Assembly (NCBI GenBank): GCA_964402785.1
Contig: CAYODQ010000001.1
Coordinates: 18,124 to 82,123 of the forward strand
Origin: an uncultured Planctomycetia bacterium
GTDB lineage: Bacteria; Omnitrophota; Gorgyraeia; 2-02-FULL-51-18
Length of the DNA: 64,000 bases
Direction of reading: 5' to 3'
Shown: one piece after another, positions 10,760 through 43,860 of the stretch
Layout of the letters: every line of letters starts with the position of its first letter
Numbering within the stretch: position 1 is the first letter of the stretch
The notes under the pieces: model-generated
What the model was told of the DNA's origin: nothing
The model's database searches: none
What the model saw: only the letters and a program-made list of their open reading frames with translations
Position numbers and translations under genes: made by a program

Positions 10760-12019
10760 ATGGATATAGATTTAGCGAAACTTAAGAAAATGAAAATGTC
10801 GGAGCTGAACGACATCGCCCATAAGATGAAAGTGAATGGTGTCAGCGGACTCAAGAAACAGGATCTGATCTTTAAGATCCTGCAGGCGCAGCCCGAACAG
10901 GATGGCGTCATGACGGGGGAGGGTGTACTGGAGATCCTGCAGGACGGCTTCGGATTTTTACGCTCACCCAATTACAATTATTTGCCTTGCCCGGATGATA
11001 TTTATGTATCTCCGTCTCAGATTCGCAAATTCAATTTGCGCACGGGTGATACTGTAGCCGGTCAGATCCGCCCGCCCAAAGAGGGTGAGCGTTATTTCGC
11101 CATGCTGATGGTGAACAAAGTGAACAATGAGTCGCCTGGTGATGTGCGCGAAAAGGTGCTGTTCGATGACCTGACGCCCATTTATCCAAACCATAAATGG
11201 CAGATGGAGACGGGCGGTTCCGACGTATCGACACGCATTTTAGATCTATTGGCTCCTATTGGTATGGGTCAGCGTGGTCTTATTGTGGCGCCGCCCTACA
11301 GCGGTAAAACCGTGCTGATGCAGAAGATCGCCAATAGCATCACCACCAATCACCCGGATGCGGTGATGATCGTGCTTCTCATCGATGAGCGCCCGGAAGA
11401 AGTCACGGATATGCAACGCCTGGTGAAGGGTGAGGTCATAAGCTCCACCTTTGATGAGCCGGCTGAGCGTCATGTGCAGGTGGCTGAGATGGTGTTGGAG
11501 AAGGCTAAGCGTTTGGTTGAATGCAAAAAGGATGTTGTGATCCTTTTGGACTCGATCACTCGTCTCGCACGTGCCTATAACACAACTGTCCCACATTCAG
11601 GTAAGATACTGTCAGGCGGTGTGGACTCGAATGCGCTTCACAAGCCCAAGCGGTTCTTTGGTGCTGCGCGCAGCATCGAAGAGGGCGGCAGTTTGACCAT
11701 CATCGCGACGGCTCTGGTGGACACGGGCAGCCGCATGGACGAAGTGATCTTTGAAGAATTTAAGGGTACCGGTAATATGGAAGTTCAGTTGGATCGCAAT
11801 TTGTTCCAACGCCGTATTTATCCGTCTATCGATATCAAGCGCTCCAACACAAGGCGCGAAGAGTTGTTGGTGGAAAAAGATGACTTGGCCAAGATATGGA
11901 TCTTGCGCAAAGTGTTGAATGAACTGAGTAGCGCGGAAGCGATGGAGCTTTTGATCGATAAGGTCTCAAAGACCAAAACGAACCGCGAATTTTTGAAAAA
12001 TATGAACAAGGTGTCATAA
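10760..12019 (+). CDS. rho: Transcription termination factor Rho (full length: N-terminal RNA-binding domain + ATPase domain)
   Basis: N-terminal Rho_N/CSD-like region; P-loop APPYSGKT; Q-loop and R-loop motifs ([20 protein letters not shown]). Confidence 0.97.
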
Positions 12020-12030
12020 AGGAGAAAGTC

Positions 12031-12237
12031 ATGAAAGAGAAGATACATCCCAAATACAACGAGACGACGATCACATGCAATTGTGGCAATGTGATCCACA
12101 CGCGCTCGACCAAGCCGAATATCCGCGTGGAGATCTGCGCCAACTGTCATCCGTTTTTCACGGGACAACATAAGCTTATCGACAGCGCCGGACGCGTCGA
12201 GAAGTTCCAAAAGAGATACAATAAGAAGGCAAACTAA
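12031..12237 (+). CDS. rpmE: 50S ribosomal protein L31
   Basis: [29 protein letters not shown] zinc-ribbon L31. Confidence 0.95.
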
Positions 12238-12384
12238 AAATCTGCTGAAAAAGCCTCATCTGCGTTGTTGTGCCACTCGTTCGCTTGTGCCTGCCTGCCG
12301 ACAGGCAGGCGACGCTATTCCCATAGCGCCTCCGCGCTCACTCGTGCACGCCTAGCATATGAGGCTTTTTGAGCAGATTTTTAG
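12238..12384. repeat. MITE-like palindromic intergenic repeat, copy A (terminal inverted repeats ATCTGCTGAAAAAGCCTCAT / ATGAGGCTTTTTGAGCAGAT), carrying a 22-nt near-perfect palindrome core GCCTGCCTGCCGACAGGCAGGC at 12289-12310
   Basis: Long hairpin directly after rpmE stop; the reverse complement aligns along its length with the element at 61664-61790 except for the core insertion. Confidence 0.7.
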
Positions 12385-20164: not shown

Positions 20165-21361
20165 GTGTCCGACGATCGCTTTAGGCTTCTGTTTGAACAT
20201 TCCTCCGATGCGCATTTCATCATTATTGATGACGTTATTACTGATTGTAATCAAGCCACGGTTTCACTGCTGAACGCTAAAAGCAAAGAAGATGTTTTAA
20301 AGATCCATCCCGGACTGCTCTCTCCTGAGTTTCAGCCGGATGGAAGGTTATCGCGCGATAAACTGATCGAAATGGATTGGGTCGCAAGAGAAAAAGGGTT
20401 CCACCGATTCGAATGGGTCCATCGTAAGCTCACAGGCGAAGATTTTCCGGTTCAGGTAACGCTCAACACGCTGGAGATCGGCGGGCGGCCCGGCATGATC
20501 GCAGTCTGGCATGACCTGACGGAGCTCAAAGAAAAGGAATCCGAGCTCAGGCAAGCGCATGACAAGATGAGGGCGGATCTTGAAGCAGCAGCTGTGATCC
20601 AGCGGTCGCTTCTTCCGGTATCCTCGCCGCGCGTGAAGGGCCTTCGTTCGGGTTGGGCTTTCAAGCCTTCGGATGAATTGGGAGGGGATATTCTTAATAT
20701 TTTCCCTTTAGATGAAAAGCATGTCGGGATGTACGTGTTGGATGTGACCGGCCACGGAGTCGGTGCGTCGCTTTTGTCAGTGGCCGCCAGCCATTTTCTT
20801 TCGCCATTTTCAGAAGCTTCATTTATCCGCAGCAAACTAGGCAGTCAATCAGGCTTGGCGCGGCCTGCCGAAGTAGCTGAAAAATTGAACCGTCATTTTA
20901 CCGCCAATCCGGATCTACTTCACTTGTTTACGATGCTGTATGGCGTGCTCAATGTTCAAACGCTGGAGTTTTGTTATGTATGTGCAGGCCATCCTCTCCC
21001 AATCGTAGTCTCCAAAGAAGGAAAAGCTCAAGCGGCCGCCGGTTCCGGGATGCCGATAGGTGTGGATCAAAATTTTGAGTATTCGGAGCTTTGTATGAAA
21101 CTTAAACCGGGGGATCGGTTTTATTTGTATTCAGATGGCCTGACCGAAGCAAGGGGTCGCCGGCGTGAACAGTTCGGAGAAGAGCGTCTAATGGCTCATC
21201 TGTCCCAGATGCGGCGATCGTCGTTATTTGAAAGCGCCCAAAGTGTCATTCGCGAAGTTGAAAATTGGTGCTCACCATCAAAACCGGATGACGATATGAC
21301 TCTTTTAGCTTGCGAACTGGTGGAAGGATGTGATGGCAAGACTCTTGAGGAGTGTTTATGA
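20165..21361 (+). CDS. PAS-domain PP2C-type serine phosphatase (RsbU/SpoIIE family)
   Basis: N-terminal PAS-like region then PP2C core GGDILNIFPLDEKHVGMYVLDVTGHGVGASLL. Confidence 0.85.
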   Translation: MSDDRFRLLFEHSSDAHFIIIDDVITDCNQATVSLLNAKSKEDVLKIHPGLLSPEFQPDGRLSRDKLIEMDWVAREKGFHRFEWVHRKLTGEDFPVQVTLNTLEIGGRPGMIAVWHDLTELKEKESELRQAHDKMRADLEAAAVIQRSLLPVSSPRVKGLRSGWAFKPSDELGGDILNIFPLDEKHVGMYVLDVTGHGVGASLLSVAASHFLSPFSEASFIRSKLGSQSGLARPAEVAEKLNRHFTANPDLLHLFTMLYGVLNVQTLEFCYVCAGHPLPIVVSKEGKAQAAAGSGMPIGVDQNFEYSELCMKLKPGDRFYLYSDGLTEARGRRREQFGEERLMAHLSQMRRSSLFESAQSVIREVENWCSPSKPDDDMTLLACELVEGCDGKTLEECL

Positions 21362-21705
21362 AAAAATCCGAATTTCTAACCTATATCCTCGAAGATGCCA
21401 TGCGTGAGGTGAGGGGGATCACGGCGAAAGCCATGTTTGGAGGATATGGCCTCTATAAAAATGGGGTTATATTCAGCATCCTGGTCGAAGATGAGCTTTA
21501 TTTCAAAGTCGATGATAAAAATCGAGCTCAATTTGAAAAGCGAAAGTCATCACCATTTTCATATGAAACCAAAAAAGGCAAAAGAGTGGCCATGTCCTAC
21601 TGGAAACTCCCCGCCGATATCCTCGAAGACCCCTCCCAGCTAAGCATTTGGATAGACGCCTCCGTCCAGGCCACCAAACGTTCCACAGCCAAAAAGAAAA
21701 CATAG
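21358..21705 (+). CDS. TfoX/Sxy N-terminal-domain protein
   Basis: MFGGYGLYKNGVIFSILVEDELYFKVDD matches TfoX_N; ATG21358 overlaps phosphatase stop (ATGA). Confidence 0.68.
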   Translation: MKKSEFLTYILEDAMREVRGITAKAMFGGYGLYKNGVIFSILVEDELYFKVDDKNRAQFEKRKSSPFSYETKKGKRVAMSYWKLPADILEDPSQLSIWIDASVQATKRSTAKKKT

Positions 21706-21737
21706 CTCTTTTTATATTTCTCTCTCACGCCTATCAT

Positions 21738-22024
21738 GTAGTCGGTAACAGGTTTCGCTTTTGCCCACCCTTGCCCTTTTCCTCGCATAGCTTTGTCATA
21801 AATGGCATGGACCCCTGCCTGCCGGCAGGCAGGCTCGCCAAAAGTCCGTTGGCCTCGAAGGTACACTCGTGCGGTATGCCTAAAAGAGCCATGACGCACT
21901 CGCGCTATATTAAAGGCTCGGCCAATGGGACTTTCAAGTGGCGTCTCCATTGCCATTTATGACAAAGCTATAAGCGCTCGGAAAAGGCCGGGATTGGTCA
22001 AAAACGAAACCTGTTACCGACTAG
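21738..22024. repeat. Giant imperfect palindrome G1 (about 290 bp, nested inverted repeats) containing a perfectly palindromic 20-mer CCTGCCTGCCGGCAGGCAGG at 21814-21833
   Basis: Outer arms GTAGTCGGTAACAGGTTTCGCTTTTG / CAAAAACGAAACCTGTTACCGACTA; inner arms CTTTGTCATAAATGGCATGG / CCATTGCCATTTATGACAAAG. Confidence 0.65.
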
Positions 22025-22092
22025 ATGCTAGACGGGCACTCGGCTATTAATTGATCTATCAGGGCGAGTGCCAGTTTAGAGCCTAAGCCGTT

Positions 22093-22333
22093 GCTCGATC
22101 TTTGTTTTCTTTGTTCCCGGCCCTTTTGGAGCGCTTATGGTTTTGTTGTAAGTCGTTTGGAGACGGCACGAGCCCTGAGTTTAGAGTCTAGCGAGCTGGA
22201 AATCCACCGGACGCTTCGCCCTGTTGATATAGGACTACTACCGAAGCGTCTTGGATTTTGTCCGAGGATCCAAATGACTTACAACAAAACCATGCGAGAA
22301 AAGGGGTAAGGGCAAAGAAAATAAAGATCGAGC
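22093..22333. repeat. Giant imperfect palindrome G2 (about 240 bp), related to G1 (shared CCTTTTCCGAGCGCTTAT-like arm motif)
   Basis: Arms GCTCGATCTTTGTTTTCTTTG..CCTTTTGGAGCGCTTATGGTTTTGTTGTAAGTC / GACTTACAACAAAACCATGCGAGAAAAGG..CAAAGAAAATAAAGATCGAGC. Confidence 0.6.
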
Positions 22334-22378
22334 GACGGCTTGCATCTATGACTTAGAGAGATAATTGAAAGGTTCTTC

Positions 22379-22405
22379 TTGGATAAACGATATTTGCGTT
22401 ATAAT
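22379..22405 (+). promoter_or_regulatory. Putative sigma70 promoter for rarA operon (TTGGAT-15 nt-TATAAT) with SD-like AGGT before ATG22416
   Basis: Hexamers read from sequence; 15-nt spacer is short. Confidence 0.4.
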
Positions 22406-22415
22406 GAGGTACTGT

Positions 22416-23714
22416 ATGGATCTCTTCGAGTCGCGCTCTCAGGGTAGTTCTGGACATGAACCTCTTGCTGTTCGTATGCGGCCGTCTTTGTTGGCGGAAT
22501 ATACGGGGCAGGAGCATATATTGGCGCCGGGGAAATTGCTGCATCGCGCCATTATTTCGGATCGAATTTCATCGATCATTCTTTATGGACCGCCGGGTAC
22601 AGGCAAGACCACCCTCGCGACGGTTATCTCCAATGAAACCAAGTCACATTTTGAGGCGTTGAATGCGGTTTCCAGCAGCGTTGCTGAGATCCGCAAAGTC
22701 ATAGAGGGCGCCAAGCAGCGTATCGCTGTTAAAAAGCAAAAGACGATCTTGTTCATCGACGAGATCCATCGGTTCTCAAAGTCGCAGCAAGATGTTCTTA
22801 TGCCGGATGTGGAGAGGGGGAATCCGATCCTTATTGGTGCGACGACACAAAATCCATTTTTTTCGATCGTACCGGCGCTTTTGTCTCGATCGCTCGTGTT
22901 TGAGCTGAAGTCTCTCTCGGAAGCGCATATACAAAAAATCATTCTCAATGCTTTGCAAAATAAAGAGAAGGGGTTGGGAGCGTTCCCGGTCCAGTTGGAT
23001 ACAGATGCTCTGGAGCTGCTGTCGATCAAGTGTGATGGCGATGCGCGCCGGGCTTTAAATGCGTTGGAGATCGGGGTATTGACGACGCCCAGGAATGAGT
23101 CGGGGCAGATCGTTTTCACAAGAGATGTTGCGGAAGAGTCTATCCAAAAAAAAGCCGTTGTTTATGATGCGGATGGGGATGGGCATTATGATACGATATC
23201 TGCATTCATTAAGTCGATGCGCGGCTCGGATCCGGATGCGTCGCTTTATTATCTGGCCAAGATGCTGTATGCCGGCGAGGATCCAAGATTTGTCGCACGT
23301 CGTATCGTGATCTGTGCTTCCGAAGATGTGGGCAACGCTGATCCTAGGGCGCTCATGATCGCCAATGCTGCATTTCAGGCAGCGGAGTACCTGGGGATGC
23401 CGGAGGCTAGGATACCGCTGGCTCAAGCTGTGGTTTATATTGCATGCGCACCCAAATCGAATGCCAGCTATCTAGCCATCGATAAAGCTTTGAAGGATAT
23501 AGCCGAAAATAAAACACTGGAAGTGCCCAAGCATCTAAAAGATGCCAGTTATAAAGGGGCGCAGGTGTTGGGTCATGGTGAGGGATATAAATATGCCCAC
23601 GATTATGAGGGGCATGTCGTGGCGCAAGACTATCTTGAAAAGCGAATTCAATATTACTTTCCAACAGATCAAGGATATGAAAAAACTATGAAACAGAATT
23701 TGAGGAAGTCGTGA
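22416..23714 (+). CDS. rarA: Replication-associated recombination protein A (AAA+ ATPase MgsA/RarA); start trimmed to ATG22416
   Basis: LYGPPGTGKTTLA Walker A, FIDEIHRF Walker B, C-terminal MgsA helical domain. Confidence 0.92.
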   Translation: MDLFESRSQGSSGHEPLAVRMRPSLLAEYTGQEHILAPGKLLHRAIISDRISSIILYGPPGTGKTTLATVISNETKSHFEALNAVSSSVAEIRKVIEGAKQRIAVKKQKTILFIDEIHRFSKSQQDVLMPDVERGNPILIGATTQNPFFSIVPALLSRSLVFELKSLSEAHIQKIILNALQNKEKGLGAFPVQLDTDALELLSIKCDGDARRALNALEIGVLTTPRNESGQIVFTRDVAEESIQKKAVVYDADGDGHYDTISAFIKSMRGSDPDASLYYLAKMLYAGEDPRFVARRIVICASEDVGNADPRALMIANAAFQAAEYLGMPEARIPLAQAVVYIACAPKSNASYLAIDKALKDIAENKTLEVPKHLKDASYKGAQVLGHGEGYKYAHDYEGHVVAQDYLEKRIQYYFPTDQGYEKTMKQNLRKS

Positions 23715-24679
23715 GAGATTTTAGATCCCAAAGGCAAGGCGGCAACAATCATTGGCGCTCTCAGACGGCGCATGGCCGCAGACCGATGCATCAGCCTGCC
23801 GTTCGGCAAGCAGATGAGTTTGAGAAAAAATTTTATGCAGGCACCGCTGTAGATCCATCGCCGCGGATCCGGCTCGAGTCGGGCAGCTCGGAGCTGACGA
23901 TGCGCGCTATGGATCTGATCTGTCCGATAGGGATGGGGCAAAGGGGTTTGATCGTAGCACCGCCCGGTTCCGGAAAGACCACTTTTTTGAAGCATATTTG
24001 TCAGTCGGTCGCAAAAGGTTATCCGGATATCAAATTGTACTGCCTCTTGATCAATGAGAGGCCGGAGGAAGTTACGGATTTTAAACGCAGTGTGGCTGCG
24101 ACGGTTAAAGCATCATCATCCGACGAAAGTTACGAGCAGCATATTCGCGCTGCGGATGAATTATTGAGAGAGGCGTTTCGCGAGGTCTCGGAGGGAAAGA
24201 ATGTTATGATCGTGATCGATTCTCTGACGCGCCTTGCTCGCGTGCACAATGCCGAGCGCCATTCGAGTGGTCGCACGTTGTCAGGCGGTGTGGATGCGAG
24301 AGCTTTGGAGGCGCCCAGGAGGATATTTGGCGCCGCCAGAAAGATCGAGAACGGGGGATCGCTCACGATGTTGGCGACGATCCTGGTACAGACAGGTAGC
24401 CGTATGGACGATGTGATCTTTGAGGAATTTAAAGGCACGGGCAATATGGAGATCGTCTTGTCCAGAGAGATATCTGGCCGGCGTATTTTTCCGGCGATTG
24501 ACATTCCCAAGAGCGGTACCCGAAGAGAGGAGTTGTTGTTAGGCTCCGAAGAACTTCTGAAGGTGCGCAAGTTGCGCCGTACTCTGGCGGAATTGGGCGC
24601 AGTCGATGCGGCAAGGACATTGGTCGAACATCTAGAAAAACATCGGAATAATCAGGAATTATTGGACGCAATTCGATGA
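23711..24679 (+). CDS. Rho-like ATPase: paralogue of Rho comprising only the C-terminal RecA-like ATPase/translocase domain (no N-terminal RNA-binding domain), Arg-rich N-terminal tail
   Basis: [70 protein letters not shown] align along their length with Rho 10760-12019 from residue ~165; GTG start overlapping rarA stop. Confidence 0.8.
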   Translation: MRDFRSQRQGGNNHWRSQTAHGRRPMHQPAVRQADEFEKKFYAGTAVDPSPRIRLESGSSELTMRAMDLICPIGMGQRGLIVAPPGSGKTTFLKHICQSVAKGYPDIKLYCLLINERPEEVTDFKRSVAATVKASSSDESYEQHIRAADELLREAFREVSEGKNVMIVIDSLTRLARVHNAERHSSGRTLSGGVDARALEAPRRIFGAARKIENGGSLTMLATILVQTGSRMDDVIFEEFKGTGNMEIVLSREISGRRIFPAIDIPKSGTRREELLLGSEELLKVRKLRRTLAELGAVDAARTLVEHLEKHRNNQELLDAIR

Positions 24680-42710: not shown

Positions 42711-42966
42711 GGCCGTATTGTAACACGGTAATGGTTCAAATGCCGGAAACCACCCTCTCCAGGACCGTCTGATTTCTCCCACCGAGAGAAATCAGACTCG
42801 GAAATCTCCTCGCTCGTCTTTCTGTATAAATAGCTAAAAAAGAATGCAAAACCTAGAGGTGACACCTGGCCGCTCGTCGATTTAACGTCCCTCCGAGGGC
42901 GCTTTCCGGCATTTGAGCCATCCAGAAAAAATATTCCAAGTTCCTGCCAAATACTGGAGTTCCGAT

Positions 42967-43599: not shown

Positions 43600-43860
43600 T
43601 GGTTATCACGTAAATCAAATCTTAGCCTCTATTTCTGTGGAAACAAGTCACGCATCTAGCCTCCATAAATAAGCACCTAAGCCGGCAAGGGGTGGCCTTC
43701 GTACGACCTCCGCGACCCCCGAGCCGCACGGAACATAGCTCTATTTTAAACATGGGCGAGGGGGCAAGAAGAGCGAGGTGCCTCGCAGGGGCACCGGAGC
43801 GTGTCGGTAGAAGGCTGCCCCTTGCCGGCTTTTACGTAAAATCATTTAGGCTAGATTCTT
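43600..43860. repeat. Structured inverted-repeat element upstream of bipA (arms CCTAAGCCGGCAAGGGGTGGCC / GGCTGCCCCTTGCCGGCTTT; flanking ACGTAAA(A)TCA..TTAGCC direct-repeat-like ends)
   Basis: Read from sequence; overlaps the spurious N-terminal extension of the bipA ORF. Confidence 0.45.

Follow-up and report, generated by a model that had tools for sequence, protein, structure and literature searches.

Inverted giant palindromes upstream of rarA in an Omnitrophota genus are copies of a lineage-specific foldback element, proposed to be selected and a candidate transcript barrier

What kind of element are two giant palindromes lying between tfoX and rarA in an uncultured member of the Omnitrophota, and is there anything that they do for their host? 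The pair lies in a stretch of 64,000 nucleotides (nt) from contig CAYODQ010000001.1 (assembly GCA_964402785.1), which we call the window, and was singled out in an earlier note made from the sequence alone, which proposed a large structured non-coding RNA (ncRNA), IS200/IS605-like hairpin ends or omega-RNA relics, or an uncharacterised miniature inverted-repeat transposable element (MITE). We find that the two palindromes, G1 and G2, are homologous and form an inverted head-to-head pair, and that the copy next to rarA, G2, is by comparison of relatives a family member under selection, held in the same place and orientation across several lineages. Tentatively, and with less than even confidence, we read the family as a resident, selected, lineage-specific foldback element that may, once transcribed, form a hairpin barrier separating the tfoX unit from an operon of rarA and a short-form Rho gene.

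Fifteen gaps between genes of the window reach 90 nt or more; the one separating tfoX from rarA, at 710 nt, is the longest, and on folding it is a clear outlier among them (z -16.4, the next being -5.5 and -5.1). The statement of the earlier note that the largest intergenic region here is not filler is supported. Folded as plus-strand RNA, positions 21706-22364 reach -333.9 kcal/mol against -199.7 +/- 6.4 in dinucleotide shuffles (z -21.1), and as minus-strand RNA -314.0 kcal/mol (z -15.4). Both palindromes are present where they had been placed, within slightly wider bounds (Table 1), and reverse-complement matches in a self-BLAST have E values of 2e-26 and 4e-23. Each copy of the family, 260-310 nt in size, consists of a stem of about 80 base pairs (bp) with two almost perfect helices and three bulges, topped by an exchangeable apex module of 100-130 nt. 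The outer arms of G1 (21728-21782 / 21980-22034, 55 nt) are 82% complementary, and an inner pair (21787-21807 / 21951-21971) is perfect over 21 bp. Complementarity in G2 is 81% between 22085-22127 and 22299-22341 and 96% between 22137-22161 and 22269-22293; its near-perfect helices are 22087-22112/22314-22339 and 22137-22161/22269-22293, and the stem is interrupted by a UU bulge with U.G pairs (22113-22114), a UAA-type bulge (22307-22309) and a GCUU bulge (22133-22136).

G1 read on its minus strand aligns with G2 read on its plus strand, and the asymmetric bulges fall in register (a longer GAGCGCTTAT side and a shorter TCGCAT side), and a profile of the family matches G1 on the minus strand at E = 8e-54 (nhmmer). 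Where the earlier note called the two tandem members of one family, the family relationship holds, and so do the shared arm motifs that it quoted, but the copies are inverted and do not stand in the same sense. Open reading frames (ORFs) that mirror each other on the two strands (21648-21962 on the plus strand and 21597-21956 on the minus strand) have no Pfam match; the view of the earlier note that they are by-products of the symmetry is supported. The smaller hairpin reported between the palindromes is also present, and folds at -22.9 kcal/mol on the plus strand and -16.1 kcal/mol on the minus strand. Because its stem repeats the stem-base motif GGCACTCG/CGAGTGCC of G2-type copies in relatives (L083 and L081 were compared), this hairpin may be the stump of a third copy.

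As relatives we used contigs with a RarA 89-90% identical to that of the window, taken as the same genus, of which about 100 kb was inspected; the relatives derive from GCA_021733565.1, JGI 3300038404, SRR30363346 and SRR21802942. Two of them, L218 and L219, have the full layout of the window, that is tfoX, an inverted G1-type copy, a short spacer, a plus-strand G2-type copy and rarA, and their G1-type copies match that of the window in place and sense (L218 3236-3485; L219 1203-1462). In L081 and L083 a G2-type copy lies directly upstream of rarA and an unrelated hairpin element, X, lies before it, while the sequence of contig L095 opens inside the right arm of such a G2-type copy, with rarA 88 nt further on, and L220 ends within a G1-type copy. 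G2-type copies are thereby found in the same orientation directly before rarA in five other lineages (L081, L083, L218, L219 and, in part, L095). L222, a contig that shares its sample with L095, has another gene after tfoX; if the two contigs belong to one genome, the constant partner of the element is rarA and not tfoX. Loss of the pairing pattern in relatives was among the outcomes that, by the earlier note, would speak against its proposals; these relatives do keep both the element and its pairing pattern.

Beyond this locus the family was not encountered. A profile of seven copies, run over 2.5 Mb of fetched loci including the window, detected only the copies at this locus, and the search for additional copies that the earlier note had suggested, made by BLASTN of the window against itself and with the profile, likewise gave none elsewhere in the window or in the 2.5 Mb. 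Where RarA identity is 78%, rarA is preceded by a GGDEF gene or a toxin-antitoxin pair and lacks the element, and in 84 more distant loci, Omnitrophota and related, the region before rarA lacks it too; in 80 species-level Omnitrophota rarA loci the neighbourhood is not syntenic and holds no similar element apart from a 20-nt palindrome described below. A rarA leader common to the phylum was considered and dropped, since the long hairpins that other Omnitrophota often have before rarA are unrelated to this one in sequence and no commoner there than in other intergenic DNA. A motif scan of metagenome contigs (GCGCTTATN{15,25}TGGAGACGSCAC) returned 11 loci, all unrelated, and also missed a known JGI copy, L083; a looser pattern run on viral contigs returned 79 loci, none similar to the family profile, and BLASTN against plasmids and phages gave no match. 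A truncated outer-stem model, R1, found generic hairpins only and scored true copies poorly, and hence was uninformative, and concatenated translations of the spurious ORFs matched nothing in a collection of 5.8 billion proteins, which, with the list of candidates probably saturated, is not evidence of absence.

The pairing of the stem is maintained in the face of sequence change. In an RNAalifold consensus of four copies with 89 pairs, the share of paired cells is 95.2%, whereas shuffles give 83.1% and slid registers 37-45%, and double changes occur in 37 of the 89 pairs compared with 16 in shuffles and 4-7 in slid registers, none of 500 shuffles attaining the observed values; with seven copies, half of the consensus pairs (42/84) show double compensatory changes. 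The two long helices vary freely among copies yet are almost perfectly Watson-Crick inside each copy, as one example of an outer helix illustrates with its forms GATCTTTGTTTTCTTTG, GACTTATATTTTAATCG, GACTTCGATTCTCCTCG and GGTTTCGTTTTTGACC, and in the apex helix (alignment columns 64-66/92-94) both sides have changed in the window copy. The three irregularities of the stem are conserved in sequence in all copies, namely the UU bulge with two U.G pairs, an opposite UAA, UAC or GAAA bulge, and the GCUU bulge, and in the alignment with the consensus fold a 24-nt apex core, GCGAGCTGGAAATCCACCGGACGC, is identical in five copies. Between L083 and L218 the element differs by 1.2%, against 8.3% for rarA and 20% at third codon positions (P = 8e-7), and between the window and its relatives by about 24%, against 50% at third codon positions. 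Given this covariation, the conserved loops and bulges and the low rate of change, the element is constrained both in shape and in loop sequence. Covariation of this kind is what structured ncRNAs display; arm-to-arm correction of a DNA palindrome would yield the same compensatory pattern, so that covariation alone does not settle whether selection acts on RNA or on DNA.

G1-type copies are present in the window, L218 and L219, with X in their place in L081 and L083/L221, and in L083 the swap has taken place although L083 and L218 are 92.7% identical next door. By this comparison G1-type copies are dispensable. Alignment of the copies also reveals an exchange of modules. The L081 copy joins a G2-type stem base and apex to middle helices that are identical over 53 + 49 nt to the G1-type copy of L218, the inner helix occurs in two forms, GCTTTGTCATAAATGGCA and GGTTTTGTTGTAAGTSGT, spread over positions and lineages, and in L219 the G2-position copy carries a foreign apex hairpin, the canonical apex core being found only in the inverted G1-position copy. 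The notion that G1 and G2 close into one super-palindrome was set aside, since cross-pairing of G1 and G2 arms is present in the window but not in L218 or L219, which have different helix types.

Element X is itself a hairpin of about 180 nt with a conserved core, AATCTCCTCGCTC...TATAAA...TGGCCGCTCGTCGATTTAACG, which, from one genome of the genus to another, occupies three separate loci (window 42739-42913; L081 4985-5200; L221 2600-2707 together with L083 1-74; L082 5327-5397) and has no match in Rfam. The window copy lies upstream of dusB on the minus strand, and both full copies fold about 17 kcal/mol better on the minus strand, with 8-10 G.U pairs.

How could a foldback element be of use at this site? 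Read-through from the tfoX unit would copy G2 into plus-strand RNA, which would snap into a very stable hairpin of about 260 nt; the conserved bulges could then be points of recognition or processing, for example for a double-strand RNase or an RNA-binding protein, and the hairpin would end or cut the upstream transcript, insulating rarA, which would start from a promoter of its own. G1 would be a dispensable inverted paralogue that recombines with G2 and donates helix and apex modules. Transcription, the plus-strand RNA as the active form and the role in blocking or processing are what we infer here. A stop codon that ends one unit precedes the element and a conserved TATAAT before rarA follows it, and other large hairpins of the window also stand between co-directional genes, both of which fit a barrier. 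The sequence suggests a separate promoter for rarA downstream of G2: its TATAAT recurs in all six relatives in which it was compared (L081, L083, L218, L219, L082 and L095), in the form TGnTATAAT in L082 and L095, and if this candidate site is used, G2 lies outside the rarA mRNA. A consensus promoter scan instead picked TTGAAA-18-GATATT at 22365-22394, its sole promoter-like match on the plus strand, which is also downstream of G2.

Strand-specific signals point to the plus strand at the G2 position. All five copies there fold better as plus-strand RNA, by 21.4, 7.6, 2.7, 8.9 and 11.9 kcal/mol, and the consensus folds at -127.3 kcal/mol in the sense direction compared with -113.4 in antisense. 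Counted in eight copies together, G.U pairs outnumber A.C by 30 to 12, and one conserved internal loop contributes two U.G pairs per copy (columns 44:281 in seven of seven copies and 43:282 in six of seven).

Several observations weigh against a transcribed barrier. Most of the strand asymmetry stems from that one loop, the helices being otherwise almost free of G.U, and copies at the G1 position show no strand preference (+4.9, +1.1 and -1.1 kcal/mol). Perfect duplexes of 17-28 bp are unusual for structured RNAs and fit DNA-level arm-to-arm correction equally well. No promoter for a transcript of its own was recognised, including in the 45-70-bp spacer between G1 and G2 of the window, L218 and L219. 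A consensus scan found no terminator-like site within 21706-22364, and the G2 stem is followed by GCAUCUAUGACUUAG with no direct U-tract, so G2 is not a canonical intrinsic terminator; a 260-nt hairpin with a conserved apex moreover exceeds by far what a barrier needs. The apex core, occurring in L219 only in the inverted copy, cannot be required in the plus orientation, and the element is known from one genus only, of which about 100 kb was inspected.

The strongest competitor, which we nevertheless hold to be somewhat unlikely, is a low-copy selfish foldback element of the MITE or REPIN type with no host function, in which G1, G2 and the stump would be non-autonomous palindromic DNA that spreads, nests and recombines, its arms kept complementary as the single-stranded hairpin substrate of a transposase encoded elsewhere or by template-switching correction. 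It draws on the fact that the entire element is palindromic with very long, near-perfect arms, on clustered copies that alternate in orientation, on the replacement of G1 by X and the presence of X at three loci, on the module exchange seen in L081 and L219, on a 20-nt mini-palindrome inserted into G1, and on the stem-base 8-mers AGCCGGCA/TGCCGGCT being common to another hairpin of the window (43680-43830); REPINs likewise have hairpins, compensatory changes and adjacent insertion (PMC3116915). Speaking against it, no target-site duplication is found at G1 or G2 in the window, L218 or L219 (X replaces G1, so there is no empty site), the window encodes no transposase, RAYT, integrase or reverse transcriptase, no copy is dispersed in the window or the 2.5 Mb of loci (about 100 kb of the genus), and the site, orientation and loops of G2 are kept across lineages that differ by 50% at third codon positions, where relics of transposition decay instead. 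The MITE of the earlier note fits in form, the whole element being an inverted repeat, small and non-coding, and no target-site duplication, dispersed copy or transposase was seen among the sequences searched. The proposal of an IS200/IS605-type relic, either hairpin ends or the omega RNA of TnpB or IscB, has only a general resemblance to DNA hairpins and structured RNAs in its favour and is scarcely credible: no Y1 transposase, TnpB, IscB or RAYT is encoded among the 68 ORFs of the window, Rfam, HEARO/omega RNA included, yields nothing at E <= 10, conservation of the element is at a single chromosomal site, and its hairpins are ten times longer than the subterminal hairpins of IS200/IS605 elements.

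An independent structured ncRNA gene, in which G2 would give a trans-acting product of about 260 nt (for example an RNA that serves proteins as a scaffold or decoy), perhaps connected with the rarA-short-Rho operon, and G1 a divergently transcribed paralogue, is in our judgement unlikely. Strong covariation, invariant loops and bulges and the invariant 24-nt core would suit it, as would the better folding of the sense strand at every G2 position with its conserved U.G pairs, the conservation of the element above that of the neighbouring gene between L083 and L218, and the head-to-head layout retained in three lineages; the core is present in at least one copy per genome whatever its orientation, which fits a gene with its own promoter. 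The spacer between the copies holds no conserved promoter that we could recognise, however, and the scan gave no terminator; G.U pairs are nearly lacking in the long, perfect helices, the variable loop of the apex is not consistently complementary to sequence nearby, no Rfam family is similar, and the element is confined to one genus, being absent before rarA in the 84 more distant loci. As to the structured ncRNA put forward in the earlier note, selection on pairing and on loop sequences suits either an RNA or a selected hairpin; no promoter or terminator was recognised and the strand bias is modest. A more specific version, in which G2 would represent a new class of structured RNA of about 260 nt working with the rarA-short-Rho operon, for example as a partner or decoy loaded by the truncated Rho, with G1 as a reservoir of modules, is a long shot. 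Improbable too is an element acting at the level of DNA, as a double-stranded or cruciform binding platform, a supercoiling-sensitive structure by the rarA promoter or a recombination substrate with the inverted copies as partners. Its arms are perfectly Watson-Crick, both orientations occur, the copies demonstrably recombine, and only 40-75 bp separate the element from the downstream -10 box of a gene whose product is a recombination/replication-fork protein, against which stand a distance to the promoter that varies among lineages from about 24 to 66 nt, asymmetric bulges and a strand bias at the G2 position that are unexpected for a symmetric DNA site, and the lack of a recombinase gene nearby. 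A selected, transcribed hairpin barrier is still the account that we prefer among these, tentative as it is.

Table 1 Features of the palindromic island and its flanks, with positions in the window
Feature	Position	Strand	Description
tfoX	21358-21705	+	TfoX_N-only protein; Pfam PF04993, E = 1.5e-29; upstream neighbour of the island
Weak outer inverted repeat, left half	21710-21725		TTTTATATTTCTCTCT; 75% complementary to the right half
G1	21728-22034	sense on -	Inverted paralogue; stem arms about 21728-21812 and 21946-22034, branched apex 21813-21945
20-nt perfect palindrome	21814-21833		CCTGCCTGCCGGCAGGCAGG; side hairpin in the G1 apex
Small hairpin	22028-22079	+	Arms 22028-22042 / 22065-22079 (GGGCACTCGG ... 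GCGAGTGCC); between G1 and G2
G2	22085-22341	+	Conserved family member; stem about 80 bp with two near-perfect helices
G2 apex module	22159-22268	+	GGAGACGGCACGAG, 18-nt variable loop, core GCGAGCTGGAAATCCACCGGACGC (22191-22214), helix GGACGCUUCG/CGAAGCGUCU, then UUGGAUUUUG
Weak outer inverted repeat, right half	22355-22370		AGAGAGATAATTGAAA
Candidate rarA promoter	22379-22405	+	TTGGAT, 15 nt, TATAAT (22400-22405), 10 nt before ATG; read from sequence, function predicted
rarA/mgsA	22416-23714	+	Pfam MgsA_C, E = 1.3e-70; downstream neighbour of the island
Short-form Rho paralogue	23711-24679	+	Start overlaps the rarA stop codon

The 68 sizeable ORFs found in the window are without exception housekeeping or regulatory genes (gatAB, polA, rho, prfA, trmD, rplS, guaA, greA, dusB, typA and ABC transporters among them), with no transposase, TnpA (Y1), TnpB, IscB, RAYT, integrase or reverse transcriptase in their number and no recombinase gene found near the island, and a PADLOC check of the context for defence systems gave weak generic AAA matches only. 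The RarA of the window is 60-75% identical to those of Candidatus Omnitrophota metagenome-assembled genomes (MAGs). The short-form Rho paralogue scores 388 bits against NCBIfam NF006886 Rho (cutoff 315), aligned to Rho positions 131-412 only, and 325 bits against NF041509 paralog_Rho2; it comprises the ATPase part only, without the N-terminal RNA-binding domains. A full-length rho is also present in the window (10760-12019), and the pairing of rarA with the short Rho is retained in L081, L082, L083 and L095, whereas in the more distant rarA loci fetched the short Rho does not lie beside rarA. Searches for tRNA and tmRNA found none. The comparison with Rfam, which covered 6S, SRP, RNase P, HEARO/omega RNA, ROOL, GOLLD, OLE and other families, turned up nothing at gathering thresholds across the window, nor anything in 21500-22600 when the limit was E <= 10.

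The weak outer inverted repeat, which is paired in the plus-strand fold, can enclose the island from end to end; it is specific to the window, its right half lying within a stretch, AGAGATAATTGAAAGG, that is absent from L081, L083 and L218. The 20-nt palindrome CCTGCCTGCCGGCAGGCAGG is found in the G1 copy of the window alone, where alignment shows it as a clean insertion into GGCGAG^GGTCC, between ...TTTTGGCGAG and GGGTCC. The same 20-mer recurs at 12290-12309 of the window, with unrelated flanks in distant Omnitrophota genomes (loci L005, L012, L031, L038, L047, L049 and L051), and in 39 IMG/VR stretches (L179-L217) with up to six copies per contig; the chance expectation is estimated at less than one. 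ARAGORN calls a tRNA-Met in L205 (2239-2330) whose long variable arm is made up of the 20-mer, L180 has it in the same tRNA context, and in L212 it lies inside a D-loop-like GCTCAGTTGGTA^GAGC. The 20-mer behaves like a very small insertional hairpin; the sequence was not found in the literature searched.

Two further hairpins of the window deserve mention. Between the rho region and prfA, a 149-nt hairpin (12236-12384) has a variant of the 20-mer as its apex and is flanked by A-runs and U-runs, like a giant bidirectional terminator. Before typA/bipA, in the gap with z -5.5, a hairpin of about 200 nt (43653-43857) contains the 8-mers AGCCGGCA (43680) and TGCCGGCT (43823), each occurring once in the window and identical to those in the G2-type copies of L083, L218 and L219; the pair occurs in no other fetched locus, and the family profile leaves this hairpin undetected. 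Many Omnitrophota genomes are rich in long intergenic palindromes (100-250 nt), at roughly one per 12 kb of loci L001-L080, with lineage-specific sequences and in several cases A/U-rich flanks (for example L035 3451-3662, L049 14024-14261, L034 128-357, L017 9806-9982 and L014 9597-9738).

What the locus provides is a well-defined element, about 260 nt in size and strongly covarying, that has been held at one chromosomal site over long evolutionary time. Acting as RNA, it would be either a structured RNA of a new sort or a transcript barrier of unusual elaboration; acting as DNA, it would be a clean natural case of concerted evolution between the two arms of a long palindrome. In public MAGs such palindromes also interrupt assemblies made from short reads and give rise to spurious gene calls: public short-read contigs begin or stop within palindromes (L095 1-52, both ends of L082, the start of L083 and the end of L220), and a spurious 157-amino-acid 'gene' has been called over the G1-type copy of L219 (1186-1659).

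Neither Rfam nor the literature searched describes a non-coding element for the uncultured Omnitrophota, and we class the element with palindromic intergenic elements, no described RNA or mobile-element family being matched. REPINs run to roughly 100 nt in length. With REPINs and BIMEs it shares being non-coding and extragenic, inverted halves that can fold in single-stranded DNA or mRNA, compensatory changes, and nested or adjacent copies in alternating orientation; REPINs, which are REP doublets, form hairpins in which compensatory changes are common and insert next to or inside one another (Bertels & Rainey 2011, PMC3116915). They differ in having tens to hundreds of dispersed copies tied to a RAYT, with the REP ends conserved and the spacer least conserved, whereas the element here has 260-310 nt, two or three copies at one locus, an apex core and bulges that are its most conserved parts, a fixed linkage to rarA and no RAYT in the window. 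ERIC/IRU sequences and MITEs such as the Correia/NEMIS elements of Neisseria are imperfect palindromes in transcribed intergenic regions, occurring in either orientation, with size variants that arise by internal insertion; their presence varies among related genomes, and some act on mRNA processing or termination. ERIC and MITE families are dispersed, and MITEs are flanked by target-site duplications. Our element has no sequence similarity to ERIC or Correia elements, no dispersal or target-site duplication was found here, and its stems are several times longer.

Among RNAs, 6S RNA and other long-hairpin RNAs resemble it in being long, irregular intergenic hairpins with conserved internal loops and covarying helices. 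6S RNAs, at about 150-200 nt, are shorter than the 260 nt here, and they differ further in having a large central bubble in place of three small bulges and a near-universal distribution in place of a single genus, with no match through Rfam. Intrinsic terminators and stem-loops processed by RNase III likewise place a very stable stem after one unit and before the next promoter, and RNase III cuts long perfect duplex segments of this kind. Compared with intrinsic terminators, the element has no T run after the stem, is about ten times larger, and carries a conserved apex and an inverted paralogue.

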